From Candidatus Poribacteria bacterium (GTDB lineage Bacteria; Poribacteria; WGA-4E; PCPOR2b), in NCBI GenBank assembly GCA_022822785.1, contig JAJEAL010000080.1:448-64447 (forward strand): a stretch of 64,000 bases of DNA. Direction: 5' to 3'. Position 1 is the first letter of the stretch; the number at the start of each line of letters is the position of its first letter. The notes below the pieces were generated by a model, which worked only from the letters and a program-made list of their open reading frames with translations, was not told where the DNA came from and ran no database searches. The position numbers and the translations under genes were made by a program. This document shows positions 27,336 to 64,000 of this stretch, in pieces.

Positions 27336-27363
27336 GGTCTAGGCTGCCCTAGAAATTCCTTTG

Positions 27364-36404: not shown

Positions 36405-36433
36405 TTGATATTTGCAATTGTTTGTCGTATAAT
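36405..36433 (+). promoter_or_regulatory. consensus sigma70 promoter TTGATA-17 bp-TATAAT driving the RHH gene
   Basis: ttgata at 36405-36410, an exact 17-nt spacer, tataat at 36428-36433. The ATG at 36444 is only about 10 nt downstream and has no SD. An AT-rich UP-like region lies upstream at 36290-36400. Confidence 0.6.
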
Positions 36434-36443
36434 CAATTACATC

Positions 36444-36647: not shown

Positions 36648-36884
36648 AGAGGCGGATCTGCTTAAATATGGATTCAAGTATCGACACCGGAAATACTTAG
36701 TCCAGTTGACCCTCGGGACGAGATATAAAACACGACGATAAATCCTGACGCCGGAATCATAGTCTATCCTAGAAGGCAGCCCGATCGAAATGTTGCAACG
36801 ATTATTTTTTAGTGGCTCCAGAACAGATTTGCATCGGCCATGAGGGGGCACACATAACATACGCATCCACTGGGTCTATATGTC

Positions 36885-37724: not shown

Positions 37725-37725
37725 G

Positions 37726-47194: not shown

Positions 47195-47998
47195 CTACCC
47201 TTTCGTTTCCGAAGCGGTCCAGACACCATTCGGAGCGAGTGCCAACGCCTGCTCAAGATGCACCATTCGCTCCGGTCCCGCCGTTTCTACCATTTTATCC
47301 CCATAGACCTTTCCCTTCCCAAAACCCGACACAAGATCAAGCTCCTTGTGCAGTAAGTCTATCTCATCTTCTTTGTATCGATAGCCACAGTTAATTGTGA
47401 ACATACGCCTTTGGGTCCCGCCGCCCCAAGAGCTATGCTTCAAACCTTGATTAAACACAACAAGGTCCCCTGGCTGCGATTCGAGTGCAACCGCGGGTAC
47501 TGAAGGGCCATCAAGCGCGTAAGTCTCTTCCAAGCTAGAGATGTTCTGTTGTACCGTTTCGGCGTATAGCTCCCCATATCTGTGGCTACCGGGGATAAAA
47601 CGCACTGCCCCGGTATTAGCGGTCAATGGGTCAAGATAAAACGCCATCTTATAGAAACGGATGGGACGGGGCCAACCGCCATCAGAATGCCAACCAGTAT
47701 CCCCACTGTAGAAATTGCCGTCACTCCCCAGATAGGTGTAATCTTCTCCGAGCAGGCTGGCGAAGATGCCATCAATTCGGTCATCGTCGAGAAGCGAACT
47801 GAGGTATTCGCTCTGACCGATAAACGGTACGATGTATGTGCGGTGCGTTTCGGGGTGATCTACGTTCAGGTCAACCCAGACCTGTTCAAATGCTTCAATA
47901 ATCTGATCGATGCAGTCATTGAGAAAACCGGGGAGATGGAGATAGCCGAATGTGTCCATATAACGGAGTTGCTCTGGTGTGAGTCGGAACTTTGACAT
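47195..47998 (-). CDS. PhyH-family Fe(II)/2OG dioxygenase
   Basis: FGYLHLPGFL ... GWHSDGGW ... FIPGSHRYG. The start is chosen at MSKFRLTPEQ; the ORF track runs to 48079. Confidence 0.7.
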   Translation of the reverse strand: MSKFRLTPEQLRYMDTFGYLHLPGFLNDCIDQIIEAFEQVWVDLNVDHPETHRTYIVPFIGQSEYLSSLLDDDRIDGIFASLLGEDYTYLGSDGNFYSGDTGWHSDGGWPRPIRFYKMAFYLDPLTANTGAVRFIPGSHRYGELYAETVQQNISSLEETYALDGPSVPAVALESQPGDLVVFNQGLKHSSWGGGTQRRMFTINCGYRYKEDEIDLLHKELDLVSGFGKGKVYGDKMVETAGPERMVHLEQALALAPNGVWTASETKG

Positions 47999-48038
47999 GA
48001 GATGTCTCCTTTGACTTAAGGTTTGACTTGCTAAAGGA

Positions 48039-49241
48039 TTAGGCGTTATCCCAACTAACGATAAAATCTGCGACCTCAAAATCCACGGGCATGTTGTCAG
48101 AATCGTATGGCGATATGCTCCGTTGAAAACCGGGGTGGTCTTCCGTATCAGAAGTCTTCAGCTTCTTATCAAGTGCACCAAACCGATTCCACAGTCCCTC
48201 TGTTTGTTCAGGAGTGAAGCGAGTTCCGAGGTAGAGGATGTCTCGACCATTCCCCCACAGGGAATTGGGTGAGGTATCCGTGTGTTTGAGCCGATACAAC
48301 GCTCTACTCAATTTTGATAGCATGACGATGCTGACCATCCGGCCGTGTGGTGATGGGTGAAGTTGCTCTAGCCCTGCGTGAAATGCGTCAACGTCTTTGT
48401 TTACGATCGCATGAAAGATCTTTGCAACCAGATCCAGTTCTGTGAAGAAGAGTGTATCCCACGTCTCAAACTGTGTTCTTGCGGGATCTGAAAGATAGTG
48501 ATAGAACCCAGGCTCCCAGTGGCGCCAATGAACGTTGGGGAAAGAGGGGAAGCGAAAAGGACGGTAGCCGGGATGCAGTGTGCGCCGCATCTTGCTGCTG
48601 TAGTAACTTCCCCAGTGTAGCAGAAGGTGGGTGTACACGACTCCGTCGCCGGCGTTAAGTTCGACAGGCATGCCGCCGGGCAGGGGCACTGATGCGTTCT
48701 CACTCAACTGTTGGTTTTCCTCGTTGGTGTTAACGCGCCGGTGACTGCCGGGAACAATCCAAAATACACTGTCGTCGTAGAGGGCGATGTTCCATTGTAG
48801 ATAACTGGGGCCATGGTGCTGCATATTGGAAATCATGCCGCGCAGCGGGGCGGGTTCTCCGGGGCCAATATCTCGGTGCCACGTGGCTGGTCCGGTTTCC
48901 CCGGCGGTCGCGCTGCAGATACAGGCAAGATTGTGTGGAACGACATCTTCTGTATCCATTAGTTGCTGGGCAACCCCCAAGGTATTCTCGTGGAGCAGAA
49001 ACTCAATGGCGTTGGCAGACTCACGATCGCAATCTGCGGCGAATGCCAATCGTGGTTGGCCACTTGCCGCCCATTCGCCCCCCGGCGGCTGATCGGGCGT
49101 ACGCCGCTGCTCGGACAGTTCTTTTTTCCGATTGACCATGTGTTCAATGCTGTTGCGCAGGGGTTGGAGCTGGTCAGGCGGGACCACATTGTGCAAGATA
49201 TTGTAGCCCTCGTCCATAAGCTGTTGCCGGTCGACTTGCAT
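48039..49241 (-). CDS. long PhyH-like dioxygenase paralog (about 400 aa) with a C-terminal extension
   Basis: LMDEGYNILHNVV ... ATWHRDIGP ... WIVPGSHRRVNTNEENQQL ... HWGSYYSSKMRRT. Clear paralog of 56974..58212, including the C-terminal roughly 130 aa. Confidence 0.7.
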   Translation of the reverse strand: MQVDRQQLMDEGYNILHNVVPPDQLQPLRNSIEHMVNRKKELSEQRRTPDQPPGGEWAASGQPRLAFAADCDRESANAIEFLLHENTLGVAQQLMDTEDVVPHNLACICSATAGETGPATWHRDIGPGEPAPLRGMISNMQHHGPSYLQWNIALYDDSVFWIVPGSHRRVNTNEENQQLSENASVPLPGGMPVELNAGDGVVYTHLLLHWGSYYSSKMRRTLHPGYRPFRFPSFPNVHWRHWEPGFYHYLSDPARTQFETWDTLFFTELDLVAKIFHAIVNKDVDAFHAGLEQLHPSPHGRMVSIVMLSKLSRALYRLKHTDTSPNSLWGNGRDILYLGTRFTPEQTEGLWNRFGALDKKLKTSDTEDHPGFQRSISPYDSDNMPVDFEVADFIVSWDNA

Positions 49242-49354
49242 GATAATACCTCATCGGAAGTGTTGAATTGGGTAAGACGGATTCAAAGATTTATGGTGAA
49301 TTAGCTAAATAAGTAGACATTTACCAACAACTCCGATCTTCGAGAAGTTGCCAA

Positions 49355-49445
49355 AGTCCCCCTGAACCCCCTTATCAGGGCGCTTCCCTTGTCAGGTGCT
49401 TGCATCCCGATTTATCGGGGGAGTTGGGGGATTTAGGGGGTTGGT
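49355..49445. repeat. C5 runs followed by G5 runs, plus a small palindrome, in an intergenic region
   Basis: ccccc at 49358-62 and 49367-71, the palindrome cccga-ttta-tcggg at 49406-49419, then GGGGG-AGTT-GGGGG-ATTTA-GGGGG-TT-GG at 49417-49444. Confidence 0.4.
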
Positions 49446-49544
49446 TGTGCATTAGGAGTGTCAAAGTAATTCTAAAATCCACCATAATAGGAGATTATAT
49501 TTATGCGGTCTACATTTGTCAACAGTCTCAGGGAGAGAAATAGG

Positions 49545-50432
49545 TTATTGGTTCAGCTGTGCTTCTGCCCACGCTTGGAGTGGAATATCAGCCGCCTCTG
49601 GTCGCCAATGTCTGGACACCGGATGTACGTGAGCGTCATCTCCTAGGTAATTGCCTTTACCTGTGCCTAATTCTCCGATCAGCTGCCGCTGAATCGGTGT
49701 GCAGCGGGCAATCAGGTCGGGGGCTTGGTGGAGATAATCGGCGGGTCGAATCCAACGATAGTGATAACCGTAATACAAACACTTCCGGGCGTGGTTTGAC
49801 AGATTTGGGGTGAGGCAGTGCCAGAGCGCAGTGCGCCAGAGCATCGCTGTGCCCGGGCGGACGTTCACCTCTACAATCCGGTCGGGATCAATCTCGTAGC
49901 CATCCTGATGTATCAGTGCCGGTGACATCTTATGGCTGCCCCGGACAACACAGATTGCGCCGCTGTTATGCTGCGTCAAATCCGTCAAATAGTAGCCAAC
50001 TTTTACCTCCACAAACGGCACCCGTCCGTTGGTAATAGGATACCCAAAATTCGGTGCGTCCGAATGCCAAGGGAAGAAACTATCCTTTGACCCTAACTTC
50101 TGATTTGCGTATTCGGGCGGACACGGTGGACGCACATCGAGGTGTGATGTGCGGATCTGGATATTGACACCGAGGACATCTACCACGAGCGGCAGCAATG
50201 TTGGGTGGTCGATGAGACGCAGCAATTCGTCATGGTGAGCGAGAGCGTTCCGAATCTGGAACGGTTCGTCCGGTCCAATCTCTTTCTCACTTCGATAGTG
50301 AGCATCTAACTCATCTACCGCTTCAATCAATGTTTCAATCTCTGTGGGACTTAGTGCATCCTCAATTAGAATATACCCATCTTCATCGAATTGCCTGCTT
50401 TGTTCTTCAGTGATAGCAATGGATTTTTCCAT
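49545..50432 (-). CDS. PhyH-family Fe(II)/2OG dioxygenase
   Basis: FDEDGYILIEDAL ... PWHSDAPN ... VVRGSHK. The start is chosen at MEKSIAIT; the ORF track runs to 50522. Confidence 0.7.
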   Translation of the reverse strand: MEKSIAITEEQSRQFDEDGYILIEDALSPTEIETLIEAVDELDAHYRSEKEIGPDEPFQIRNALAHHDELLRLIDHPTLLPLVVDVLGVNIQIRTSHLDVRPPCPPEYANQKLGSKDSFFPWHSDAPNFGYPITNGRVPFVEVKVGYYLTDLTQHNSGAICVVRGSHKMSPALIHQDGYEIDPDRIVEVNVRPGTAMLWRTALWHCLTPNLSNHARKCLYYGYHYRWIRPADYLHQAPDLIARCTPIQRQLIGELGTGKGNYLGDDAHVHPVSRHWRPEAADIPLQAWAEAQLNQ

Positions 50433-50454
50433 CAAAATATCCTCCGGGACGTTG

Positions 50455-51213
50455 TTAACGGTAATCTTCTGCTGCGTCCTGTGGCTCAAAACCAACCACC
50501 TCACGCGCATGTGAAAAGTCACGATAACTCCATCTGTTATTCGACACCGCGAAGAAGATATCGAACTTTACACTATCGGGTGCTTCGACGCACTTTTCGA
50601 CCATCTGTGCGATGTCTCGATGGCTGCACCAGACGGAGAACGTACGTGACTGTGTCGGACGGTTTTCGCGGGTCACTGCGCCGATACGGAGACTGATTAT
50701 TGAGATGTCACAGGTATCCGTAAAATATCTGGCTAACGCCTCACCGAACACCTTGGTGCACCCGTAGAGCCCGTCTGGTCGTGTCAGCGAATTATGGTCT
50801 AGCATATCCCACGTTTCAGGCACTTCATCGTAACGTCCTTCTGCAAGTGCGTTATAGGGAAATTCCCGTTCGCAATTACTGATGGTTGAGCCGCTGCTGG
50901 CGTAGATTACTCGCTTAACACCCGCCTGTCGTGACGCTTCAAACACATTATAGGTCCCAATGATGTTAGGGCTCAAGAGATCTTCCCACGTTGCGCCGCC
51001 TTGTGCGTTTGCTGCAAGATGCACAACCACATCCACCCCCTCAAAGGCAGGTTGTATCGCATTGAGGTCGGCGATATCCGCTTGATGACATTCTATTCCT
51101 TTTACCGGGCGACGATTGAGTGCGCTCAAAGCGTATTTTCCCTCCAAACGCTCCCGCACGATGCCGCCAATCAGTCCGCTCATGCCGGTGATGAGTACTT
51201 TCTTTTGTGCCAT
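50455..51213 (-). CDS. NAD-dependent epimerase/dehydratase family protein (short Rossmann-fold)
   Basis: KKVLITGMSGLIGGIV ... HLAA ... YGCTKVFGE (the YxxxK catalytic motif). 252 aa. Confidence 0.75.
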   Translation of the reverse strand: MAQKKVLITGMSGLIGGIVRERLEGKYALSALNRRPVKGIECHQADIADLNAIQPAFEGVDVVVHLAANAQGGATWEDLLSPNIIGTYNVFEASRQAGVKRVIYASSGSTISNCEREFPYNALAEGRYDEVPETWDMLDHNSLTRPDGLYGCTKVFGEALARYFTDTCDISIISLRIGAVTRENRPTQSRTFSVWCSHRDIAQMVEKCVEAPDSVKFDIFFAVSNNRWSYRDFSHAREVVGFEPQDAAEDYR

Positions 51214-51368
51214 ATCCCTCTCCTTTTTTACGTTGGCTCATGTAAAAAGAAAGTGCAAAGCACGAATTCTTAACATGAGCGTTTACGTTTTATGTACGGT
51301 TCGCGTATTATACAACACACGCTGCAAGTTATCAATAATTCCTCCCTATTGAGGTGACCAAAATTGTC

Positions 51369-51397
51369 TTGACACGACTGCTGTTTTCCTCTATACT
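51369..51397 (+). promoter_or_regulatory. sigma70-type promoter TTGACA-17 bp-TATACT upstream of the ThuA-like gene
   Basis: ttgaca at 51369-51374, an exact 17-nt spacer, tatact at 51392-51397. An imperfect dyad ctgcg ... cgcag follows, then the RBS aggagg 9 nt before the TTG start at 51481. Confidence 0.5.
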
Positions 51398-51480
51398 GAC
51401 GACAGGTTTAGTATCGCTGCGTCTTACAGATAAGCGCAGGAGCGTAACGACAAACATAAAGCATAGAGGAGGCATCCACA

Positions 51481-52125
51481 TTGAAAGTTTTAGTCTTATC
51501 GGGCCCAAATCATCGGTTTGAAGATAGTGCGGCTGTTATCAACGATTTCCTCTCCGCGCGAGGCGATATGTCCGTCGAGCTTACTGACGATAAAGGGGTA
51601 TTGGCGTCGTCTCAACTGAACGAGTTTGATGTCTGTGTGTTCGGAACCGGGTTCACCCGTACGGTTAGGCAAGCCGACGGTGCCCCCAAGCGGGAGCCGG
51701 ACCTCACATCTGATCAGGAAGACGGTCTCTTTCAATTTGTCGGTGGAGGGAAGGGATTGGTCGGGATTCACGGAACTGCATGGTGGATCGGTGGACGTGC
51801 TGTTGACCTCATCGGCGGAGCCGCCAACTGGCATCCACCGGGTGATACGTTCACAGTGAATATTGACGACTCAGATCACCCGATTACACAGGGCGTTGAG
51901 GCCTTTGAGGTCGAGGACGAAATCTATATGTCCGCTTATGATCCTTATATCCGCATCCTGGCGTCCGCGGAATGGTCGGAGAAACAACACCCGATGGCGT
52001 GGGTGAAATCCTATGGCGATGGGCGGGTTTTCTACACATCGCTTGGTCACGGTCCCGGCACCTTTGAGCGACCTGCTATGCAGAAAATGCTTGCACAGGG
52101 CGTCCAATGGGCGGCAAACAGTTAA
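51481..52125 (+). CDS. ThuA-like protein (class-I glutamine-amidotransferase-like fold)
   Basis: KVLVLSGPNHRFE ... GKGLVGIHGTAWWIGG ... GRVFYTSLGHGPGTF. 214 aa, TTG start. Confidence 0.65.
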   Translation: MKVLVLSGPNHRFEDSAAVINDFLSARGDMSVELTDDKGVLASSQLNEFDVCVFGTGFTRTVRQADGAPKREPDLTSDQEDGLFQFVGGGKGLVGIHGTAWWIGGRAVDLIGGAANWHPPGDTFTVNIDDSDHPITQGVEAFEVEDEIYMSAYDPYIRILASAEWSEKQHPMAWVKSYGDGRVFYTSLGHGPGTFERPAMQKMLAQGVQWAANS

Positions 52126-52211
52126 GTCTCAAGTGGAGTTGAGCAGGCTGCTTTGGTGGTATCCTGCTCAATCTCTTTAACGCCGTGAATAGAAGGGGAG
52201 GTTAGCATACG

Positions 52212-53003
52212 ATGATCGAAGACGAACGCTATCTATTTGACCTGACAGGCTACCTCGTAATTAAGGAGGTACTCGCCGCTGAGGAGGTTGAGCGTTGTAA
52301 TGCAGCAATCGATCGCCATTTTGATCAAGCGAAAGAGATAGACAGGTCGCTAGCGGGTAATTCAAAAACGTTGTCAGGAACTTCTCGCCGGATAGATTTA
52401 GGTGGGATGCTAGCGTGGGAACGCCCATGGTGCGAACCGTTTCGGCATTTTCTTGTCCATCCGCGAATAAAGCCCTACCTCGACGGGATATTAGGAGAAG
52501 GCTATCGACTCGATCACGGACCGGGGATGATTGCGATGGACACAGGGGCAGAAGGCGGCACATTGCACGGCGGGGGCATTGAGCGTCCTAACTTTTCGGA
52601 AGCCTATTTCTTCAAGGATGGACGTATCTACACCGGGCTCACGGTCGTCGAATATATGCTCGCGGACGAAGGCCCGGGAGATGGTGGATTAGCGGTTATT
52701 CCGGGCAGCCATAAGGCGAACCTCCCTTGTCCGCAAAGTATGAAGCTATGGGAGAAATATCAGCAGCATGTGCTTGAAATCAATGCAGAGGCCGGCGATG
52801 CCGTTATCTTCAGTGAGACCCTGACGCACGGCACTTTGCCATGGAGGGCGAAGCATCAGCGGCGTGCGTTGCTCTATAAATTTAGTCCCGGATTTCAGGC
52901 ATACAGTGCAGGAGCGCATCAAATCACCTATCCTGACTATATTGAGGATATGACGCCGGCGCAGCGTGCAGTCATGGAGGCACCGCACATCCGTCGCCGA
53001 TAG
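52212..53003 (+). CDS. PhyH-family paralog in which the expected HxD/E position reads H-G-G
   Basis: YLFDLTGYLVIKEVL ... GTLHGGGIERPNF ... LTVVEYMLADEGPGDGGLAVIPGSHKAN ... SETLTHGTLPWRAKHQRR. 263 aa. Confidence 0.65.
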   Translation: MIEDERYLFDLTGYLVIKEVLAAEEVERCNAAIDRHFDQAKEIDRSLAGNSKTLSGTSRRIDLGGMLAWERPWCEPFRHFLVHPRIKPYLDGILGEGYRLDHGPGMIAMDTGAEGGTLHGGGIERPNFSEAYFFKDGRIYTGLTVVEYMLADEGPGDGGLAVIPGSHKANLPCPQSMKLWEKYQQHVLEINAEAGDAVIFSETLTHGTLPWRAKHQRRALLYKFSPGFQAYSAGAHQITYPDYIEDMTPAQRAVMEAPHIRRR

Positions 53004-53042
53004 TATCTAGTTGTTTACTTCAAGAGAAAGAGATGAACACCC

Positions 53043-54374
53043 ATGAGCAACGTTCCGATGACACGCCCTGAAGAGGCATTGGCGATTCACGAGACGAGAT
53101 ACTTCCACTCGTCTACCTTTACGGAACTGGAAGATGGACGTGTGTTACACGCCGCTGGAACGCAGTTCAATACATCTGACGATGGCGGAATCACATGGTC
53201 AGAGTCGTTCTCGTGTTCTGACACAGAAGGGAATCCGGTGGGTGGCGGCGGAACATCGCTCGTGCGGTTGTCCGGCAGCGGTATTGGCTTGGCAGCCATG
53301 CAAAGACCGTCGGACGATTCTCCAGAGAACGATAGGTGGAACGCGCATCTGGTTTTCTGGCGGTCTGAAGATGGCGGAGAGACGTGGGAACCTCCGGTTC
53401 GCATAACGCCGCCGGGGGTGGGCACCTACGCCTATCAAGATGTCCTGCTTCGCACTGCTTCTGGGCGCATTGTCCTACCGGTGTATATCGCGATAGGGCA
53501 GTCCGCTGGACCGGATGACGTCAAACCGCCAGCATCTGGTAAATTGGTGAATGGTCAGTGGGCCTCCACCGCTGCACACTTCTTTGACCCTCGTTTTTCC
53601 GCTTCTTATGTCTGTTATTCGGACGACGATGGGCGCACGTGGCAGCGCAATCGGGATGGGGAACTGATCATCTTGATGGACTGGAACGCATCGTTCAGCT
53701 ATACCAATGAACCAACGGTCACAGAAGTGAGTCCGGGACGGCTGCTGATGTTCATGCGCAATGGGTTAGGACGAATCTTTCAGGCGTGGTCGGCGGACAA
53801 TGGGGAGACATGGACGCGTCCACAGCCGACTTCTCTCGCTTCGTCCACGGCGCCTGCACAGATTCGGACGCTGCCTAACGGCCATCTCTTGGCGGTCTGG
53901 AATCAGGAGACCGAGGACGAAATTAAACGGGGCTATAACCGGACGCGCGTCTCCGCTGCGATTAGTCGAAATGGTGGCAGCGTGTGGGAGTTCTTCCAAA
54001 ATGTGGAATCGATGCACGAGGAGACGCGGGTCGAGCCGGGACCGATTCGTCCTGTCCGGCCAGCGGAATACAACTTTGATCCGGGACTTCCTGCTCCAGA
54101 GCGTGAGCGTGAACATATCCTCCCCTTCGATTTTCATGGACGGTGGTCGTACCCGTCGGTATTCGTGATGGCAGACCGCGTCCTCATCGCGCATACCTAT
54201 TCGGTCTATGAGGAACACCCGACCCGCGCTGAGTTAATTCTGAGCAGTCAGAAGGAGGGCGGTTTCAATCAGAAGCTGAAGGTGCTGCCTTTGACGTGGT
54301 TCTACGGTGGGAAAGAGCCTGCGGATAACCCTGTGCTGGCGCGAATATACGATCAGGGAAACCCTAATGCGTGA
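53043..54374 (+). CDS. BNR/Asp-box repeat protein (sialidase/neuraminidase-like six-bladed propeller), no signal peptide
   Basis: Asp-box motifs SDDGGITWS, SEDGGETWE, SDDDGRTWQ, SADNGETWT, SRNGGSVWE. 443 aa. Confidence 0.75.
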   Translation: MSNVPMTRPEEALAIHETRYFHSSTFTELEDGRVLHAAGTQFNTSDDGGITWSESFSCSDTEGNPVGGGGTSLVRLSGSGIGLAAMQRPSDDSPENDRWNAHLVFWRSEDGGETWEPPVRITPPGVGTYAYQDVLLRTASGRIVLPVYIAIGQSAGPDDVKPPASGKLVNGQWASTAAHFFDPRFSASYVCYSDDDGRTWQRNRDGELIILMDWNASFSYTNEPTVTEVSPGRLLMFMRNGLGRIFQAWSADNGETWTRPQPTSLASSTAPAQIRTLPNGHLLAVWNQETEDEIKRGYNRTRVSAAISRNGGSVWEFFQNVESMHEETRVEPGPIRPVRPAEYNFDPGLPAPEREREHILPFDFHGRWSYPSVFVMADRVLIAHTYSVYEEHPTRAELILSSQKEGGFNQKLKVLPLTWFYGGKEPADNPVLARIYDQGNPNA

Positions 54375-54421
54375 AAAGTGAAGCGTTAAAGATCAGAACT
54401 TGATCGCTGTAGAGGAGACAA

Positions 54422-55426
54422 TTGATGTTAAAATTTGCTTATTTGGGGGCATGGCACAGCCACGCGAGTATGCACACCCGCGAGTCAACAGAGCGTCCGG
54501 ACGAGTTCAAACCCATCGGATTCTATGACCCGGATCCAGAGGTTGTTGCGCGGAGAGAGGGGGAGTGGTCCGAATCCTTTCCTGACCTGACCGTTTTTCC
54601 GTCGGTGGAAGCGGTGTTGGACAGCGATGTTCAAGCTGTCATCGTCGAAGGGCATGTGTATCAGAACTTGGACTATGCAGAGCAGGCACTCGAAGCGGGT
54701 AAACATGTGTTGCTCGAAAAACCGGCAGGCGTTAATATAGAGCAGTTACAGCGGGTTCACGAACTCTCGGAACGCAAGGGGCTATGCGTTCAGATGGCGT
54801 ATATGTGGCGTTACAATCCCGCAATCCACGAAATGCTGCGACTTGCAAAATTGGGTGCGTTTGGCGATATTTTCTACTACCGCGGACACATCCCGAAGCC
54901 GATGTCGTGGCATCCACAGTTGGCGCAGGAGTACAAGGTGTATCACGGCGGGATTTACTTCGAGATGGCGGGACATCTGATTGATCTGATGGTTATCCTG
55001 ATGGGAGAGCCAACGGGAGTGCAGCCCTCCTTGGGACGGCACTACGACAGCCGGTCGGAGGTGGATAATGCGGTGGTCGTCCATGAATTTGAGAATGGAC
55101 TTGGTACGATTGACACCGCCGGGATGCACATCGAGAGCGGCAAAACCCGGCGTATCGAGGTCTACGGCACAAAGGGCACCGCTATCCATACGCCAATCGG
55201 TTCGGATAATCTCAGCCTGTTTCTGGGGGAATCTGTTGAAGGCTACGCAGCGAGCTCGCACGATGTAACCATCACTCGGTCGGCAGCCTCTGGATCACTG
55301 TTGCGTGAGCTTGCCTCTTGCATTCGTGGGGAAAAACAGCCAGATTACACGCTGGCACACGATAGGGCTGTGCAACGGACACTGTTCGCCGGTTGTGGCA
55401 TAACGGACGGTATGGCATTGAGATAA
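54422..55426 (+). CDS. Gfo/Idh/MocA family oxidoreductase
   Basis: KFAYLGAWHSHA ... LLEKPAG ... C-terminal alpha/beta domain. 334 aa. Confidence 0.65.
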   Translation: MMLKFAYLGAWHSHASMHTRESTERPDEFKPIGFYDPDPEVVARREGEWSESFPDLTVFPSVEAVLDSDVQAVIVEGHVYQNLDYAEQALEAGKHVLLEKPAGVNIEQLQRVHELSERKGLCVQMAYMWRYNPAIHEMLRLAKLGAFGDIFYYRGHIPKPMSWHPQLAQEYKVYHGGIYFEMAGHLIDLMVILMGEPTGVQPSLGRHYDSRSEVDNAVVVHEFENGLGTIDTAGMHIESGKTRRIEVYGTKGTAIHTPIGSDNLSLFLGESVEGYAASSHDVTITRSAASGSLLRELASCIRGEKQPDYTLAHDRAVQRTLFAGCGITDGMALR

Positions 55427-55489
55427 GCGAAAGTTTTCGGCCAACCTTCCCTCTAACCGAACGAGTCTCGTTTGTCCGGGAAAATTTCT

Positions 55490-56221
55490 ATGAAAAATAG
55501 TGAGAAAACAGATACCCTTGAAATCAAGGCGTTGACATTTGATGTATTCGGCACAGTTGTGGACTGGCGCGGTAGCATTATCCGCGAAGGGGAAGCCTTT
55601 GGGGCAACTCACGGAATTGATGTCGATTGGGCAGAGTTTGCGGATAAGTGGCGGGGAGGATACGGACCCTCAATGAATCGCGTCCGTCAGGGTGAACTGC
55701 CGTGGCTGAACATAGATACCCTGCACCGTATGATCTTGGACGATTTACTTGATGAGTTCGAGATTACAGGTTTGGGTGAGGAAGAGAAAGACCACCTCAA
55801 CCGTGTGTGGCATCGTCTCCTCCCATGGCCCGACGCCGTCAGCGGACTGCAGCGATTGCGCGAGCGGTTTATTATTGCACCCCTTTCTAATGGTAATATC
55901 GCCTTGCTCACCAATATGGCGAAACACGCCGGGCTACCGTGGGACTGCATTCTGTCCTCAGAGTTGGCGAGGCATTACAAACCGGATCCGGAGGTCTACC
56001 AAACCGCCGCGGACTTATTGGGCCTTCCGCCGAATCAAGTGATGATGGTCGCGGCACACCCCGGTGATTTGATCGCGTCGTCGGCTGTTGGATTCAAGAC
56101 CGGATTCGTGCCCCGCCCTGAAGAATACGGGCCGCACCGCAACCGAGATCTGGAACACGATGCCGCTTTCGATGTCATAGCGAAAGACTTTAATGATCTG
56201 GCAAGTCAGCTAGGAGCATAG
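55490..56221 (+). CDS. HAD-superfamily hydrolase of the haloacid dehalogenase type II subfamily (dehalogenase activity not supported)
   Basis: ALTFDVFGTVVDW (single nucleophile Asp), LSNG motif, HYKPDPEVY, AAHPGDL. The corresponding stretch in L-DEX is SSNAWD; here the two Ser and the Asn are not conserved. The start is chosen at MKNSEK. Confidence 0.6.
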   Translation: MKNSEKTDTLEIKALTFDVFGTVVDWRGSIIREGEAFGATHGIDVDWAEFADKWRGGYGPSMNRVRQGELPWLNIDTLHRMILDDLLDEFEITGLGEEEKDHLNRVWHRLLPWPDAVSGLQRLRERFIIAPLSNGNIALLTNMAKHAGLPWDCILSSELARHYKPDPEVYQTAADLLGLPPNQVMMVAAHPGDLIASSAVGFKTGFVPRPEEYGPHRNRDLEHDAAFDVIAKDFNDLASQLGA

Positions 56222-56228
56222 AACAAAG

Positions 56229-56969
56229 ATGTTTGTCGGTGTGGATGGGTGCAGGGCGGGTTGGTTGGCTATCGGACTGGAAGCCACGGGTAACTGGCAG
56301 GTAGATATTTTTTCCAATGTGTCCAGTCTTTGGGATCACCACCGGCAGGCGTCTTTGATACTGATTGATATTCCTATCGGCTTGAAAGCCGGTGGCAAGG
56401 CTGAACGTGGTTGTGACCCGCAAGCCCGGAAGTTGTTGGGGCCGAGACGTTCAAGCGTGTTTCCCGCGCCGTGCCGTGAGGCGATATATGCCTCGTCGTA
56501 TCAGGAAGCCTGCGATATCAATCAACGGTTGACAGACAAACGGTTGTCTGTTGAAAACTGGAATATTATCCCCAAAATCCGTGAGGTGGATTGCCTTCTT
56601 TCGGATGACATCTCCGCGAGATCTAGCATTAGGGAAACCCATCCGGAACTCTGTTTTTGGGGGTTGGCGGATCGGCCGATGCAATACGCCAAAAAGCGGA
56701 GTGAAGGACTGTCGGAACGGACGCAGCTCCTCTGGTCGATTTATCCGGGGACTACTGATATTATTGCCCATGCGTTATCCACTTATAGACGCAAAGATGT
56801 CGCAAGAGACGACATTCTGGATGCGCTGGCCGCTGCGGTGACGGGACTGATGGGAGGACAAAACCTCGTGTCAATTCCCCAGAAACCTGAGTTTGATGAG
56901 CGCGGCTTGCGGATGGAGATGGCGTATTGTTCGCACGCCGTAGTGGAATTATGGGATAGAACTGAATAG
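56229..56969 (+). CDS. DUF429 domain protein
   Basis: MFVGVDGCRAGWLAIGLE ... ILIDIPIGL, the characteristic DUF429 N-terminus. 246 aa. Confidence 0.6.
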   Translation: MFVGVDGCRAGWLAIGLEATGNWQVDIFSNVSSLWDHHRQASLILIDIPIGLKAGGKAERGCDPQARKLLGPRRSSVFPAPCREAIYASSYQEACDINQRLTDKRLSVENWNIIPKIREVDCLLSDDISARSSIRETHPELCFWGLADRPMQYAKKRSEGLSERTQLLWSIYPGTTDIIAHALSTYRRKDVARDDILDALAAAVTGLMGGQNLVSIPQKPEFDERGLRMEMAYCSHAVVELWDRTE

Positions 56970-56973
56970 GCTT

Positions 56974-58212
56974 ATGACGGGAGATACGGGAATGCAATTT
57001 AATCGAGACCAATTCATGGAGGACGGGTATTTGGTATTGCGCGAGGTCATCCCACCGACTGAATTGGAAGATTTGTGCGCTGGTTACGATCGGATGGTAG
57101 ATCGACAACGTGGGATCTGGGCGTGCGAACGCAATCCAGACGATCCACCGGGCGGCGTATGGGAGACGGGTCCACAACCGCGGTTGGCGCTGCATCGGCG
57201 CCCTTTGCTAGACCTTATTGATAGGGAGACAGCGAACACAGCGGAAATCTGGCTGCACGAAAACACGCAGGGCGTTAGTACTCAGTTGATGGGAGAGCCG
57301 GATGCAGCCGTTACCGAAATGATGTTGATGTGCAGTCCGGTACGCGACCGGGGTCCTGCTGCTTGGCACCGCGACATCCATCCGATTGATACCGCCCCGC
57401 TACAGGCGTATATAGATGACATCATAGAAAACGGGCCGAGATATGTTCAGTGGAACATTCCGCTCTACGATGACAGTGTGTTGTGGGTGGTGCCCGGCAG
57501 CCACCTACGCATCAACACCGAAGAGGAGAACCGTCAGTTGTTGGCGGATCCGCACGTCCCCTTGCCCGGCGGCGTCCAAACGCATCTCAAGGGTGGTGAT
57601 GGTGTGGTCTACATCACCCCCATCCTCCATTGGGGCAGCAACTACAGCGCGAAGCTGCGGCGCACCATTCACGGCGGTTTCTGCAACTTCACGAAATATG
57701 AAGATTTGAGTTATACGAAAAATCTATCCGCTGAAGCCCAAGCCACACTGCAACGGTGGGACAAACGGAGTGAGCAGATGCAGGGTCGTACTGAGTCGGC
57801 ATTGCGAGCTGTTATTGAAAAAGATGGTTCCGCCTACCACGCTTCGCTAGACGCGATACATCCGGGCAGAGGTGAAAAGGGCAAAATGCTAACCACTATT
57901 TTTCTGTGTAAGGCGGCGTTTTTCATTAATCTCCGACGGAATCCGGGGGTTGAAGACGGTCCAGAAGACCTGCGTAAGCGCGGGACGAGCGCTCACCCAA
58001 CGACGCTGAACTGGGGACCTGAGTTCGCAGATCGTTTCACACCGCAGGAGGCAGAGACGTTATGGGACCGGTTTAAGCCGCTCGATGCCAAACTTCAAAG
58101 GGATGAGGAACATTTTTTCCCCGGCTTCCAATCGGGGCCGATGCGGTACTGTTTCAATGAAACACCCTCCGATTTCGGGGTAAAGGAATTCATCGGGATT
58201 TGGGAGAATTGA
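56974..58212 (+). CDS. long PhyH-like dioxygenase paralog (about 410 aa) with a C-terminal extension
   Basis: FMEDGYLVLREVI ... AWHRDIHP ... WVVPGSHLRINTEEENRQL ... HWGSNYSAKLRRT. Paralog of 48039..49241. Confidence 0.7.
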   Translation: MTGDTGMQFNRDQFMEDGYLVLREVIPPTELEDLCAGYDRMVDRQRGIWACERNPDDPPGGVWETGPQPRLALHRRPLLDLIDRETANTAEIWLHENTQGVSTQLMGEPDAAVTEMMLMCSPVRDRGPAAWHRDIHPIDTAPLQAYIDDIIENGPRYVQWNIPLYDDSVLWVVPGSHLRINTEEENRQLLADPHVPLPGGVQTHLKGGDGVVYITPILHWGSNYSAKLRRTIHGGFCNFTKYEDLSYTKNLSAEAQATLQRWDKRSEQMQGRTESALRAVIEKDGSAYHASLDAIHPGRGEKGKMLTTIFLCKAAFFINLRRNPGVEDGPEDLRKRGTSAHPTTLNWGPEFADRFTPQEAETLWDRFKPLDAKLQRDEEHFFPGFQSGPMRYCFNETPSDFGVKEFIGIWEN

Positions 58213-58267
58213 GAACTGCCCGTAAGTATAGTCCTGTGGGGCGTTAAATTTGGGAGAGGAGAAATAG

Positions 58268-59110
58268 ATGATCGTTGATGTGCACAGCCATTGTCTTCAA
58301 CCCGAGCACATGAGCGAAGCTAATCATCGCGCTAACGAGCGAGCGGGTTATCCGCCGATGCCACCGTTGTCGCCCGAAACGTACCTGAAAGCGATGGAGG
58401 TCGTTGACAAAGCGATTGTTTTCGGGGTGCGGGGCGTTTCTGCCGGAATGTACAGCCCGAACAATTTCACCGCTGAATGGGTCAAACACGCGCCGGACAA
58501 GCTGATCGGTTTCGCGGCGATAGATCCGACCGAGGAGGACCATCTAGAAGAGGTTGATCGGTGTGTGTCGGACTTGGGATTGCAGGGGATCAAACTCTAT
58601 CCCATGCTAGGGCGATACGATCCCACTGATCCCACCGTCGCCTTTCCCTTGTACGAAAAGGCGCAGCGGATGGGATTGCCGATCTTGTCGCACATGGGAA
58701 CGCATCCGGCCCCTCGGGCGATGCTCAAATACAGTTTGCCGATACTGATTGACGAAGTTGCCCAAGCGTTTCCAGACCTCAAGTTTATCATGGCGCATAT
58801 GGCACACCCGTGGCAGCGAGATTGTGCGGTTGTCTTGCGCAAGCACCCAAATGTCTACGCGGATGTCTCCGGTGGCGGGTGGGTCCGTCAGTGGCAAGGC
58901 TGGGAGGGGTTGATTGGCATGGTTGAGTGGGGTGTGACAGACAAACTCCTTTTTGGCTCGGATTTCCCGCTATGGACGCCGCAGGAGGGCATGGATGGGC
59001 TGCGCCGGCTGAACGACCAGCTCGAAGGTACGAAACTGCCGCGTATTCCGGAAGATGTGATTGAAGGGATTATCCACCGGGATTCGCTCGCGCTTCTGGG
59101 GTTGGAGTGA
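58268..59110 (+). CDS. amidohydrolase-2 family (PF04909-like) metal-dependent hydrolase
   Basis: MIVDVHSHCL ... IKLYP ... FIMAHMAHPW ... GSDFPLW. 280 aa. Confidence 0.7.
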   Translation: MIVDVHSHCLQPEHMSEANHRANERAGYPPMPPLSPETYLKAMEVVDKAIVFGVRGVSAGMYSPNNFTAEWVKHAPDKLIGFAAIDPTEEDHLEEVDRCVSDLGLQGIKLYPMLGRYDPTDPTVAFPLYEKAQRMGLPILSHMGTHPAPRAMLKYSLPILIDEVAQAFPDLKFIMAHMAHPWQRDCAVVLRKHPNVYADVSGGGWVRQWQGWEGLIGMVEWGVTDKLLFGSDFPLWTPQEGMDGLRRLNDQLEGTKLPRIPEDVIEGIIHRDSLALLGLE

Positions 59111-59341
59111 TAAGGTATCTATGTTTGCTGTACGTCACTTGAAAGGGAACTGTTCAGATGACGAGGGTTCTTTGTATCTCTGTCATATCTGGAGTCAGGG
59201 AATACCCCAGAGAGGTTGCGATGATAAAGTTGTTGGCCTCTGCCGAAGGGCGGTAGATTTATGAGAAGCTAGGTTTTGAATCATCGAATGAGATGGTTCT
59301 GTTGTGTGAATGAAGAGTTTTAGAGAAAGGATCCGCCCATT

Positions 59342-60118
59342 ATGCTTGATGTTGAGCTTATCGATCCCACTGAAGTTGAAAGAGCAGCGGCTATCTTCCA
59401 TCGAGATGGGTTTGTTCCCATCAGAGACGCGCTCAATCCCGAACAGCTTGCGTACGCCCAATCGGGTGCAGCCCGTGTCATTGCCCAGCAGATGAGGGAT
59501 ATTCCACTGGAGGAGGCAAACCGAGGATATGCCCGTTACTCTTTTGGTTCCCAGATCCATCACCCGGAATGGGTTCAGCTTATCGATTTACCGACGGTTT
59601 TACCGATAATAGATGCGATTTGGGGGAGTTCCGATTACATCTGTTCCGGCGGCGGTGGCGATTACTCGACGCCCGGCGCGCGGGAACAACAGCTCCACGC
59701 CGATATCAGAGATGTTTTCAACGATCCACTGAATCTAGTGACAATCCACGATGTGCCAACGCCGTATATCGTTGTGAATTTTCTTATGGTTGAATTCAAA
59801 AAGATTAACGGTGCCATTCGATTTGTGCCGGGGACCCATCGGACGCGTCAACCTGTGCCGGCGATAGACGAGGAGCCTGACCGTATGAAGGAATCGATTA
59901 TCTGTGCACCCGCCGGAACGGCGCTCATCCGGGATGTGCGTTGCTGGCACGGGGGCACCGCCAATAACTCGGCTGAGATTCGACCGATGACCAGTGTCGG
60001 TTACCTCGCGCCATGGTTTCGTTTGTCCGGTCTGGGACCATCACTTCCACGTGCGCTCTATGATACGCTGTCCGCCCGCGGTAAGGAGCTCACTCGGTTT
60101 ATCGTTCAGCCCGATTAA
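59342..60118 (+). CDS. PhyH-family Fe(II)/2OG dioxygenase
   Basis: FHRDGFVPIRDAL ... QQLHADIRD ... FVPGTHRT ... CWHGGTANNSAEIR. 258 aa. Confidence 0.7.
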   Translation: MLDVELIDPTEVERAAAIFHRDGFVPIRDALNPEQLAYAQSGAARVIAQQMRDIPLEEANRGYARYSFGSQIHHPEWVQLIDLPTVLPIIDAIWGSSDYICSGGGGDYSTPGAREQQLHADIRDVFNDPLNLVTIHDVPTPYIVVNFLMVEFKKINGAIRFVPGTHRTRQPVPAIDEEPDRMKESIICAPAGTALIRDVRCWHGGTANNSAEIRPMTSVGYLAPWFRLSGLGPSLPRALYDTLSARGKELTRFIVQPD

Positions 60119-60177
60119 GTGTGTTGTTGACCTCGATTCTGGTTTGTCTTTAGCGATTAAAGAACGGAGATGTACTG

Positions 60178-61227
60178 ATGAACGCTTTCGATCTGCGTGA
60201 ATTATCCGATGCCTCTGAAGTTTATCTCTGCCACGATGAGGGCTACTTTCCTGTCCTCATCAATCCACAAGATGAAGAAATTCTCGCTGTCCTGCGGGGC
60301 GGGGCCGGACATGTGGGGATAACCGGATGGCTGGATGCGGTGCGTTCACTAGATGGCGGCAAAACGTGGGGGCCGCCGACTGTTATTGTGGATACCGAGG
60401 TGGATGACCGCAATCCCGCAGTTGGGCACGCTCTTGATGGGACGGTCGTGGTTGCTTACCACGCTCAAGGGTCTTACAACAAGGATGGGAGTTGGGGGCA
60501 CAACTTGCGCCGTGTGCAAATGCGGCTCACGTGCTCGCACGATGGCGGTGTAACATGGGAACCATCTCAACCGCTCAACTACAAACCGATGGAAAAATGC
60601 TCTGCCTATGGTCGAATCTGTACCTTGACCGATGGAACGATGCTCCTGCCGATTTATGGGAGCGTTATCGGAACGTCGGAGCAGACAAATGATCATGCCT
60701 ACATTCTACGCTCATATGACAACGGGCAAACGTGGGGAGAACCCACTCTGATCGCTGCGGGTTACAACGAAACAGGGTTACTTCTCCTACCCAACGGTGA
60801 TTTGGTGGCTGCAATGCGCTCCGGTGATCAACGTGCCCTGCTGTCGGTGTCCCGTTCCACGGATGGAGGAACGACATGGACCGAACCTATTCCTGTCACC
60901 AATGACCGCGAACACCCTGCTGACTTGACGCTGCTTTCCAACGGCTGGATTCTCCTATTCTTTGGTGTGCGGCATGAGCCATTTGGGGTGAGTGCGCTCG
61001 TCAGTAAGGATAACGGACAAACTTGGGATGAACGGCGGTTGATTGTCTGTGACGATTTAGGCGACAATGATTTGGGTTATCCTTCTACGGTGAAGCTAGG
61101 TGATCGCCTCGTGACAGCATACTACTGCGCGCCGCGACAGTGGAATGCGCCGGATTTTCGTGGCGAGGGCACTTTCGCGCGAGCATTGCTCTACAGCGAA
61201 AGTGTGTTGTTGGCGGCAATTGTGTGA
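60178..61227 (+). CDS. BNR/Asp-box repeat sialidase-like propeller protein, no signal peptide
   Basis: Asp-boxes SLDGGKTWG, SHDGGVTWE, SYDNGQTWG, STDGGTTWT, SKDNGQTWD. 349 aa. Confidence 0.75.
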   Translation: MNAFDLRELSDASEVYLCHDEGYFPVLINPQDEEILAVLRGGAGHVGITGWLDAVRSLDGGKTWGPPTVIVDTEVDDRNPAVGHALDGTVVVAYHAQGSYNKDGSWGHNLRRVQMRLTCSHDGGVTWEPSQPLNYKPMEKCSAYGRICTLTDGTMLLPIYGSVIGTSEQTNDHAYILRSYDNGQTWGEPTLIAAGYNETGLLLLPNGDLVAAMRSGDQRALLSVSRSTDGGTTWTEPIPVTNDREHPADLTLLSNGWILLFFGVRHEPFGVSALVSKDNGQTWDERRLIVCDDLGDNDLGYPSTVKLGDRLVTAYYCAPRQWNAPDFRGEGTFARALLYSESVLLAAIV

Positions 61228-63436: not shown

Positions 63437-64000
63437 ATGAACCCAACTACTTTTCCTGCCCTCCCTGTTTTACTAGTAGATGACGAAGCACAATTCCTCT
63501 TCAGTGCTAGTTTAAGCCTGAATTCGGAGGGCATTGATAATGTTGTAGAATGCCAAGATAGTCGTGATGTAATGTCGATTCTTTCCGAAGAAGACTTTTC
63601 CGTCGTTGTGTTGGATATGTTGATGCCGCATCTGTCAGGGTGGGAATTGCTCCCAACGATTGTGCGGGATTTCCCAGATATCCCAGTTATTATCATCACG
63701 GCGGTCAATGAGGTTAAGACAGCGGTTGACTGTATGAAGGAAGGGACTTTCGACTATTTGGTAAAACCTGTGGACAAGGTGCGTTTGGTAACGACAGTCC
63801 GGCGGGCGATAGAGGTTAGGGACTTACGCGATGAAAATACTCGACTTCGGGACTATCTGCTTTCCGACAAGCTAGAGCAGCCTGATGTGTTTTCCGAAAT
63901 TATCACCCAAAACTCTGTTATGCGATCTATTTTCCAATATATCGAAGCGATTGCCGAGAATGCGCTGCCGGTACTCATAACTGGGGAAACCGGTGTGGGT
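63437..64000 (+). CDS. sigma-54-dependent response regulator (NtrC-like: receiver plus AAA+), 3-prime truncated by the window edge
   Basis: Receiver domain LLVDDEAQF ... VVLDMLMPHLSGWELL ... KEGTFDYLVKP, then the start of the AAA+ domain with LPVLITGETGVG (Walker A). There is no stop codon before the window end. Confidence 0.8.
   Translation, partial: MNPTTFPALPVLLVDDEAQFLFSASLSLNSEGIDNVVECQDSRDVMSILSEEDFSVVVLDMLMPHLSGWELLPTIVRDFPDIPVIIITAVNEVKTAVDCMKEGTFDYLVKPVDKVRLVTTVRRAIEVRDLRDENTRLRDYLLSDKLEQPDVFSEIITQNSVMRSIFQYIEAIAENALPVLITGETGVG

Follow-up and report, generated by a model that had tools for sequence, protein, structure and literature searches.

The 64,000-nt window analysed here, a stretch of a sponge-associated Candidatus Poribacteria genome, carries at positions 47195-61227 a dense cluster of enzyme genes, among them six for PhyH-family Fe(II)/2-oxoglutarate (2OG) oxygenases and two for BNR_2 propellers. 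We read this cluster, with a probability of about one half, as a clade-specific mosaic of cytoplasmic enzymes for the oxidative breakdown of glycan-derived sugars and sugar acids, organized in three sigma-70 transcription units and composed of separable modules. Its genes come from the most expanded enzyme families of the Poribacteria, and it belongs among the carbohydrate-oriented, PhyH-rich neighbourhoods of this phylum. We infer the cytoplasmic catabolic role as the most likely one. The sugar theme is drawn from the likeness of one enzyme to uronate dehydrogenase (Udh), the presence of an MR_MLE (enolase superfamily) gene in related loci, the fold of the propeller BNR1 together with its Glu/Arg pair, the neighbours of the BNR1 orthologues, the likenesses of three oxygenases to HygX, KanJ and EvdO1, and the carbohydrate enzymes encoded beside homologues of the oxygenase PhyD.

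Gene content of the cluster

The gene content was established from the list of open reading frames (ORFs) and from Pfam scans, for the cluster plus its flanks; PhyA to PhyF, BNR1 and BNR2 are labels for the six PhyH genes and the two BNR_2 propellers.

47195..47998, minus strand: PhyA, PhyH-family Fe(II)/2OG oxygenase (Pfam PhyH E 4.8e-11; H131-x-D133 in the numbering of the 294-aa ORF)
48039..49241, minus strand: PhyB, long PhyH protein of 400 aa with a C-terminal helical extension (H122-x-D124)
49545..50432, minus strand: PhyC, PhyH oxygenase, 295 aa from its likely start (H153-x-D155 in the numbering of the 325-aa ORF)
50455..51213, minus strand: Udh-like protein, a short extended-type short-chain dehydrogenase/reductase (SDR) of the NAD epimerase family (Pfam Epimerase E 6e-24; 3RFT E 6e-32)
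51481..52125, plus strand: ThuA-like protein, 214 aa, TTG start (Pfam ThuA E 1e-39; 4E5V E 2e-6)
52212..53003, plus strand: PhyD, PhyH oxygenase with the HygX-type relocated triad (H119-G-G121...E202-x3-H206, then R217)
53043..54374, plus strand: BNR1, predicted six-bladed sialidase-fold propeller, 443 aa, without signal peptide (Pfam BNR and BNR_2; AlphaFold2 (AF2) model)
54422..55426, plus strand: Gfo/Idh/MocA NAD(P) sugar oxidoreductase, here GFO (Pfam; NCBIfam iolG far under cut-off)
55472..56221, plus strand: HAD type II protein, L-2-haloacid dehalogenase family (NCBIfam TIGR01428, 170 bits vs a cut-off of 125.4)
56229..56969, plus strand: DUF429 protein, RNase H-like fold family (Pfam)
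56992..58212, plus strand: PhyE, long PhyH protein of 406 aa with a C-terminal helical bundle (H132-x-D134 in the numbering of the 412-aa ORF, from 56974)
58268..59110, plus strand: Amidohydro_2 metal-dependent hydrolase, decarboxylase or lactonase family (Pfam; 3IRS, then ACMSD)
59342..60118, plus strand: PhyF, PhyH oxygenase (Pfam; H119-A-D121; weakly KanJ)
60178..61227, plus strand: BNR2, sialidase-fold propeller, 349 aa (Pfam BNR_2; 5HX0 E 8e-20)

The PhyA ORF (47195-48079, minus strand) encodes 294 aa, and its likely start at Met28 (position 47998) gives 267 aa; the PhyC ORF (49545-50522, minus strand) encodes 325 aa, with a likely start at 50432. These scans returned the same families at the same places as a first-pass annotation made from the letters and ORF list, except that Pfam counts six PhyH genes where five had been reported. 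All six exceed the Pfam gathering score of 22 bits (43.8, 28.7, 76.9, 53.8, 37.5 and 61.6). The HAD type II call also held, its TIGR01428 equivalog score being above cut-off and consistent with that assignment, and the reported absence of signal peptides was confirmed, since all the enzymes lack hydrophobic N-termini and TM-like windows.

Three conserved sigma-70 transcription units

Promoters were scored against the sigma-70 consensus (as n/12) and against the sigma-54 consensus (TGGCAC-N5-TTGCW and GG-N10-GC). Three near-consensus sigma-70 promoters stand at the starts of the units:

49494..49522, minus strand: TTGACA-17-TATAAT (12/12), ahead of PhyB-PhyA
51307..51335, minus strand: TTGATA-17-TATAAT (11/12), for the Udh-like gene and PhyC
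51369..51397, plus strand: TTGACA-17-TATACT (11/12), for the ThuA operon

The divergent ThuA/Udh promoter pair is invariant in the window and in all 17 related loci (18-sequence alignment), even with insertion sequence (IS) or MITE-like inserts between the two promoters, and the PhyB promoter, which is invariant across 15 related loci, reaches 12/12 in every one of the 16 loci scored. The cluster hence has three conserved sigma-70 transcription units. Unit 1 would comprise ThuA-PhyD-BNR1-GFO-HAD-DUF429-PhyE-Amidohydro_2-PhyF-BNR2 and probably continues into the genes of a histidine kinase and a response regulator, unit 2 would comprise the Udh-like SDR and PhyC, and unit 3 PhyB and PhyA. Inside the main plus-strand unit the genes are co-directional and closely packed, with gaps of 4-86 bp.

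The first-pass annotation had proposed sigma-54 control, and had noted a kinase and an NtrC-type regulator downstream on the same strand as BNR2. Both genes are indeed present:

61278..63329, plus strand: three-PAS histidine kinase, soluble, 683 aa (gene call; without TM-like window)
63437..64000, plus strand: NtrC-type response regulator (receiver and sigma-54-interaction domains; Pfam), truncated by the window end

The more likely kinase start, at 61278, leaves no overlap with BNR2. The regulator is full length in locus L001 (480 aa, GAFTGA at residues 229-234, Pfam Sigma54_activat and HTH_8), and by these features it is a genuine NtrC-type enhancer-binding activator. One new catabolic or tailoring pathway, with its operons activated through sigma-54 by this PAS kinase and regulator, would fit the intact GAFTGA and HTH_8 of the regulator and the position of the pair, which both in the window and in 15 of the 18 full-cluster relatives lies behind BNR2 and shares its strand; furthermore, there is no conserved promoter ahead of PhyF in the related loci compared, so that one transcript may cover the enzymes together with kinase and regulator. 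However, the scans detected no -24/-12 element between the genes of the cluster, either in the window or in 20 related loci, nor downstream of the regulator. In the window, TGGCAC-N5-TTGCW was matched 27 times when 32 matches were expected from shuffles, and no match lay upstream of any operon, while the GG-N10-GC scan gave only two matches of at least 10/12, both coding, at 58800 (Amidohydro_2) and 34710 (outside the cluster). Relatives show the 58800 match again, and likewise a second match within PhyF, since both belong to coding sequence; TTGC is missing from most of these copies. In addition, consensus sigma-70 promoters stand at all three units, and the kinase-regulator pair is absent beside the modules that survive in two more distant loci (L025 and L004, see below). 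Sigma-54 control of the cluster was thus rejected, and a pathway regulated in this way is quite unlikely, the least supported of the catabolic readings. The target of the regulator was not found within the cluster, and as no sigma-54 promoter is detectable there, kinase and regulator probably regulate something else. The pair is like NtrB/NtrC-type (AtoS/AtoC-like) systems in combining a PAS-HisKA-HATPase kinase with a receiver-AAA+(GAFTGA)-HTH_8 regulator, but it differs from them in that the neighbouring operons have no sigma-54 promoter and the sensor is soluble.

Two of the leaders carry inverted repeats:

51417..51439, plus strand: CTGCGY-N11-GCGCAG in the ThuA leader, at the same place in L003 and L007-L023
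49351..49440, no strand: C-run/G-run inverted repeat (CCCCCTGAACCCCC...GGGGGAGTTGGGGGATTTAGGGGG) in the PhyB leader, specific to the window

The ThuA-leader repeat (CTGCGC-N11-GCGCAG in the window) sits between the -10 element and the ribosome-binding site; 95.8% of its cells are paired and there is almost no covariation. No Rfam match was obtained for this leader and RNAalifold gave almost no structure, hence a riboswitch or other RNA element was discarded, as nothing is seen beyond a sequence-conserved repeat, which may be either an operator or a hairpin of the 5′-untranslated region. The C-run/G-run insert separates the conserved PhyB promoter from the PhyB start and lengthens the leader from ~58 nt to ~250 nt; in most relatives 56-60 nt lie between promoter and PhyB, and L003 has a different insert at the same place. 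The G-run motif was found nowhere else in the window, nor in the related poribacterial loci, so that a repeat family was ruled out.

The cluster is a composite of separable modules

The conservation of the cluster was analysed by tblastn of its proteins against 71 DUF429-anchored loci in species-representative genomes; 20 genome records with the DUF429 anchor are Poribacteria metagenome-assembled genomes (MAGs) of 5-7 Mb. Close homologues are named Candidatus Poribacteria, and the contig of the window itself was recovered in a metagenome. The order PhyA-PhyB-PhyC-Udh / ThuA-PhyD-BNR1-GFO-HAD-DUF429-PhyE-Amidohydro_2-PhyF-BNR2-kinase-regulator is retained completely in loci L007-L009, L011-L016, L018-L020 and L023, nearly completely in L010, L017, L021 and L022, and, by gene calls, in L003. 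The full cluster is therefore present in ~17 species-level genomes of one clade, at 80-95% amino-acid identity. The flanks of the relatives are likewise collinear (e.g., a 2-Hacid_dh gene beside PhyA in L012 and L016), and at this level of identity the synteny mostly reflects relatedness and says little on function.

Beyond this clade only parts of the cluster were recovered. In L025, a distant poribacterial genome, ThuA-PhyD-BNR1-GFO-(HAD remnant)-DUF429 is retained among other neighbours; L004 retains PhyH-ThuA-cupin-PhyD-Udh, with DUF429 3 kb off, and L024 only GFO-DUF429. A metagenome scan with a 6-sequence PhyD alignment gave 80 loci, all but a few of them on JGI and ENA metagenome contigs, and in the 44 loci of at least 4 kb that were used for adjacency ThuA never adjoins PhyD (0/44), BNR1 does so once (1/44, a 79% poribacterial relative) and GFO twice (2/44). 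The commonest of the ORFs neighbouring PhyD homologues (n=129) is PhyH (15), followed by sulfatase (5) and then by assorted carbohydrate enzymes. Finally, PhyE-type paralogues of other genomes stand in unrelated contexts (tricorn protease, SpoU methylase, Fic and similar). The island is a composite of separable modules that is stable in one clade only. Hence, the gene order that the first-pass annotation wanted tested across relatives is conserved in full within the clade, but outside it only as sub-blocks (L025, L004) or almost not at all (L024). The scattering of genes that would speak against its proposal is seen outside the clade, together with co-localization within it, and the single coherent pathway that it had envisaged is not supported, given the dispersal observed in L024, L025, L004, the 44 PhyD loci and the PhyE paralogues.

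The window has lost a gene for a 394-aa MR_MLE protein between Amidohydro_2 and PhyF (59111-59341), present in 16 of the 18 loci, and one for a repeat-containing lipoprotein (~321-332 aa) between GFO and HAD (55427-55471), present in 14 of the 18. The "operon" of the relatives tolerates unrelated inserts, namely the lipoprotein, a methyltransferase, a beta-lactamase-like protein, GNAT, IS elements and a Uma2-like endonuclease. Mobile elements inside the clusters of the relatives (an IS4-like transposase, a TnpB-like 411-aa ORF and short MITE-like inserts) leave the flanking promoters undisturbed; they were located at 1959-3435 in L011, at ~5440-6675 in L021 and in the Epim-ThuA spacer of L007 and L022, and L004 carries two copies of a repeated four-ORF element.

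PhyH density and possible neutral aggregation

PhyH (PF05721) is the most abundant and most expanded Pfam family of the Poribacteria, with >1.9% of the genes against <0.049% in all other genomes then available, and its poribacterial paralogues are highly divergent and without an assigned function (Kamke et al. 2014, PMC3909097). These genes are transcribed in hospite (PMC5087111). The PhyH density that had seemed striking is hence a phylum-wide trait already published (PMC3909097), and the cluster shares with that report the phylum and the family; Kamke et al. described the abundance and a phnY/phnZ pair, but not the cluster, its promoters or the association with ThuA, BNR, GFO and Udh-like genes. 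Against the published background of 1.9%, six PhyH among 15 genes have P = 2e-7. However, the other 47 kb of the window contain 3 PhyH, 2 GFO and 1 Amidohydro_2 genes dispersed among purH, mqn, the dcw cluster and other housekeeping genes, and at this local PhyH background of 8% (3/37 genes) the same density has P = 7e-4, so that ~0.3 to 4 such windows would be expected per genome. The density is real, yet far less exceptional within Poribacteria than it first appears. The pairwise identity of the six paralogues is only 22-39%, hence they are not recent duplicates, and recent tandem duplication was ruled out as the origin of the density. PhyB and PhyE form a long (~406 aa) subfamily and are 39% identical over their full length.

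These numbers bear on the main rival explanation, neutral aggregation, in which independent stand-alone scavenging enzymes for unrelated substrates would have gathered in a paralogue-rich genome, as paralogues of PhyH, GFO, BNR, ThuA and Amidohydro_2 abound in Poribacteria and tend to build up in arrays, and the synteny of close relatives would be mere collinearity. It is consistent with the abundance of the PhyH family in the phylum, the dispersed PhyH, GFO and Amidohydro_2 copies elsewhere in the window, the frequency at which six PhyH in 15 genes are expected at the local background, the rank of PhyH as commonest neighbour of PhyD homologues (15/129), the low identity of the six paralogues, the contexts of the PhyE-type paralogues, the near absence of ThuA and BNR1 from the PhyD loci, and the unrelated genes and IS elements inserted in relatives. 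On the other hand, three strong promoters conserved at the unit starts and the short gaps argue that the genes are expressed as units, the ThuA-PhyD-BNR1-GFO sub-block persists in a distant poribacterial genome with other surroundings, and BNR_2, MR_MLE, GFO and PhyH come together again in a Gemmatimonadota locus. We regard aggregation as possible, though rather doubtful.

A second, small PhyH neighbourhood lies at 25019-29996 of the window (minus strand) and contains two PhyH genes, an O-methyltransferase, MR_MLE and a PD40 beta-propeller protein; its PhyH at 25019-25795 is a divergent HygX-like form that reads H-S-N.

Active sites and nearest relatives of the PhyH oxygenases

PhyA, PhyB, PhyC, PhyE and PhyF retain the H-x-D and the distal His of the iron facial triad. 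PhyD is without the canonical H-x-D; the alignment of its family (40 sequences) shows L-H119-G-G121, E202-x3-H206 and, behind the distal His where the family has its 2OG-binding Arg, R217. G121 aligns with Asp134 of the canonical PhyE family (hhalign), and Glu202, four residues ahead of the distal His, is near-invariant (37/40 sequences). An H-x-G...E-x3-H relocated iron triad is on record for HygX, the oxygenase that forms the orthoester in hygromycin B (PMC13374393), and HygX is the best PDB match of PhyD (E 3e-8 over ~100 residues, with a HMMER alignment that spans residues 127-228 only). PhyD thus carries a HygX-type relocated iron triad in its sequence. An Fe(II)/2OG halogenase was also considered, as the Gly at the carboxylate position is real and family-wide, and was rejected because Glu202 (E-x3-H) would substitute as the acidic ligand, as in HygX. 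With representatives of 50%-identity clusters in metagenomes, the PhyD family (H-x-G...E-x3-H) numbers 2379 cluster representatives at E <= 1e-3 and 193 at E <= 1e-30, which suggests that an iron site known from one antibiotic pathway marks a large metagenomic family.

Of the other oxygenases, PhyC, PhyE and PhyF were compared with the PDB, and their likenesses are weak. The nearest solved relative of PhyF is the kanamycin B dioxygenase KanJ, a weak match although the best in the PDB, and the best PDB matches of PhyC, also weak, are leucine and ectoine hydroxylases. No sequence match of PhyE was found in the PDB; its model (pLDDT 73, with a poorly modelled jelly-roll core) has EvdO1 as its sole structural match, a weak one (Foldseek E 4e-3), so that no informative fold could be assigned to its C-terminal domain. 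With HygX, EvdO1, EvdO2 and AviO1, which are PhyH-like Fe/2OG enzymes that act on sugars, the cluster shares the triad of PhyD and the match of the PhyE model. Further hallmarks of a HygX-type orthoester-forming oxygenase would be the oxidative cyclization of a glycoside and a Lys137 that fills the gap left by the Gly. However, the sequence similarity to these enzymes is low, there is no aminoglycoside or orthosomycin biosynthetic context here, and the PhyD family is very large.

That the nearest characterized relatives of PhyD, PhyE and PhyF are the aminoglycoside and orthosomycin tailoring oxygenases HygX, EvdO1 and KanJ might suggest that the cluster tailors a glycosylated natural product during its biosynthesis, and sponge symbionts are known natural-product producers. 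However, Pfam scans found no glycosyltransferase, aminotransferase, NDP-sugar synthase, PKS/NRPS, exporter or resistance gene in the cluster, the similarity to the tailoring enzymes is weak, and the homologues number thousands in metagenomes and adjoin sulfatases and glycan-degrading enzymes. We consider a tailoring cluster very improbable.

The BNR propellers

The AF2 model of BNR1 (pLDDT 88, pTM 0.90) is a sialidase-type six-bladed propeller, to which Foldseek assigned a TM-score of 0.5-0.56 with GH33 sialidases and with 5HX0, and a probability of 1.0 with many GH33 structures. The catalytic set of GH33 sialidases consists of an Arg triad, a Tyr nucleophile paired with Glu, and an Asp acid/base. 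In HMMER alignments the invariant residues E223 and R239 fall on the E...(+16)R pair found in NanA (pneumococcal) and NanI (clostridial); we take the Glu of this pair to be the one that assists the nucleophile, and its Arg to be number two of the triad. The third Arg and the Tyr may be R300 and Y370, which are likewise invariant; the Arg of the RIP motif was left unaligned, and a near-invariant R8 in the N-terminal 'VPMTRPEE' may take its place. BNR1 is thus modelled as a sialidase-fold propeller with a putative part of the catalytic set. It resembles the GH33 exo-sialidases in its six blades, Asp-boxes and Glu...Arg(+16) pair, and in that its orthologues adjoin NAL/DHDPS-type aldolases, but it is only 12-18% identical to them at a TM-score of ~0.5, 'YFHSSTF' replaces the RIP motif, and the poribacterial forms are without signal peptide. 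The nearest structure of BNR2 is the uncharacterized Dfer_1899 (5HX0, E 8e-20). We know of no activity for the BNR1 orthologue group or for 5HX0.

Orthologues of BNR1 that are 60-75% identical were found in Gemmatimonadota, Acidobacteriota, Opitutae and SAR202. Many of them (from Opitutae, Acidobacteriota and others; P0217, P0225, P0209, P0216, P0234 etc.) have a signal peptide immediately ahead of 'VPMTRPEE', while the poribacterial and Gemmatimonadota forms begin at this motif, so that the family is apparently exported in some phyla and, as its N-termini suggest, cytoplasmic in others. Six neighbourhoods of BNR1 orthologues in other genomes, two of them from MAGs named Gemmatimonadetes and Acidobacteriota, contain DHDPS/NAL-type aldolase (3), HpcH aldolase (1), MR_MLE (2), GFO (2) and more BNR_2 (3) genes, as well as a NanM-like kelch protein and a 3-keto-disaccharide hydrolase; the aldolase- and dehydratase-type neighbours point to an acidic keto-deoxy (ulosonic-type) sugar. 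In the Gemmatimonadota locus BNR_2, MR_MLE, GFO and PhyH recur together.

Dehydrogenases, hydrolases and probable passenger genes

The enzyme first annotated as an NAD-dependent epimerase belongs to that family, but its nearest likeness is uronate dehydrogenase 3RFT, to which the Udh-like SDR is similar over its full length (residues 1-252, E 6e-32). NCBIfam Azf matched under its cut-off, and no equivalog cut-off was reached; from these comparisons the protein appears most like a uronate dehydrogenase. The best NCBIfam match of GFO, iolG, lies far under cut-off, and the best PDB match of Amidohydro_2 is the uncharacterized BB4693 (3IRS), followed by ACMSD.

Two known systems were compared with this set. 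The oxidative uronate pathway uses Udh, a lactonase and a glucarate/galactarate dehydratase of the enolase superfamily; the likeness lies in the Udh-like SDR, in Amidohydro_2, possibly a lactonase, and in the MR_MLE gene of 16 of the 18 relatives. Here, however, the genes are distributed over separate transcription units, MR_MLE is missing in the window, and KdgD and ketoglutarate semialdehyde dehydrogenase were not found. ThuA and ThuB form 3-keto-sugars in the thuEFGKAB system of rhizobia and Agrobacterium, and the cluster likewise has a ThuA-family protein and a Gfo/Idh/MocA oxidoreductase in one transcription unit, but PhyD and BNR1 lie between ThuA and GFO, the cluster has no thuEFGK-type ABC transporter, GFO is not identifiable as ThuB (NCBIfam), and ThuA is absent from PhyD loci elsewhere. 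An identity with the ThuAB system was discarded because ThuA and GFO are non-adjacent and a sugar ABC transporter is lacking. A literature search on ThuA with PhyH in sponges returned nothing relevant. The statement of the first-pass annotation that no characterized pathway has such a composition still stands, as none was matched in the NCBIfam and PDB searches.

The DUF429 protein is unusually conserved, being 59-61% identical to proteins of a deltaproteobacterial MAG and of a Methanocellales archaeon, and outside Poribacteria its gene is solitary or lies beside cobalamin/ABC genes. Because of this it was dropped as a pathway marker, and it is probably a passenger gene, judged by its homologues. 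In L006 its neighbours are Peripla_BP_2, CobA_CobO_BtuR, FecCD and ABC genes, so that its role may be related to cobalamin and unconnected with the cluster. Three Dehalococcoidia MAGs (L049, L051 and L054) encode, 3-5 kb from DUF429, a HAD type II protein that shares 65-66% identity with the HAD of the window, a hint either of a tie between HAD and DUF429 or of genes passed from one symbiont phylum to another.

A proposed oxidative route and its weighing

Poribacteria are documented in the literature as glycan degraders. In the reading of the cluster that we prefer, an oxidative breakdown of glycan-derived sugars, the cell would import glycan fragments that stem from sponges or algae, and their sugar or sugar-acid units would be the substrates. 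An acidic (ulosonic-type) sugar would be released or otherwise acted on by the sialidase-fold propellers, sugars would be oxidized by GFO with ThuA and by the Udh-like SDR, and Amidohydro_2 would handle the resulting lactone or acid, with a contribution of the MR_MLE dehydratase in the relatives that have it. The PhyH oxygenases may hydroxylate their substrates and so remove or remodel sugar substituents. A 2025 paper reports the demethylation of 2'-O-methyl ribose by PhyH enzymes of the PHYHD1 type, one of them poribacterial, which provides a precedent for PhyH enzymes taking off a sugar substituent.

The unrelated inserts in the relatives weigh against this oxidative route, and so do several other points. 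No transporter is conserved with the cluster in the related loci, where the DUF6785 membrane protein described below is variable, and no aldolase, kinase or established-family glycoside hydrolase is present in the cluster of the window, so that no complete route can be written. MR_MLE has been lost in the window itself, the collinear flanks take weight from the synteny, and DUF429 and HAD look like passengers. Furthermore, the nearest solved relatives of PhyC hydroxylate amino acids or ectoine rather than sugars, and the likenesses of the PhyH proteins to characterized enzymes are all weak (E 1e-7 to 1e-8, or Foldseek E 4e-3 on the pLDDT 73 model).

A bolder variant would place the PhyH enzymes at the centre, with the cluster as an undescribed cytoplasmic route in which divergent forms (HygX-like PhyD and the two long proteins with a helical C-terminus) strip or remodel substituents on acidic or modified sugars with the propellers, ThuA/GFO and Udh-type dehydrogenases. 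We put it forward tentatively and hold it to be unlikely. If true, such a PhyH sugar route would be the first functional rationale for the PhyH expansion of Poribacteria, the dominant uncultivated sponge symbionts, an expansion whose function has been an open question since 2014. The locus sets six divergent PhyH beside sugar-type enzymes and thus offers a compact, promoter-defined protein set for heterologous assays; on its own it reveals neither a new mechanism nor a new regulatory principle.

Neighbouring genes and other features of the window

One membrane protein gene precedes PhyA on the map:

45170..47122, minus strand: DUF6785+DUF6784 polytopic membrane protein, 650 aa (Pfam E 3e-172 and 8e-34; 76 TM-like windows)

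The first-pass annotation had called this protein an orphan, which its matches to DUF6785 (E 3e-172) and DUF6784 contradict; no literature on either domain turned up. It is not a constant neighbour, as 2-Hacid_dh adjoins PhyA in L012 and L016 and only a fragment is left in L022, and it is a neighbour outside the conserved cluster.

Elsewhere in the 64 kb, two SAM hydroxide adenosyltransferase paralogues (SAM_HAT_N, SAM_HAT_C) are encoded at 5452-6372 and 24147-24947, both on the plus strand. Three low-GC segments (12001-14000, 22001-24000 and 36001-38000) have a GC content of 0.40-0.43 vs ~0.50, and the cluster is slightly richer (0.53-0.54). The segment at 22-24 kb encodes a 530-aa N6/N4 DNA methylase and may be of foreign DNA origin.

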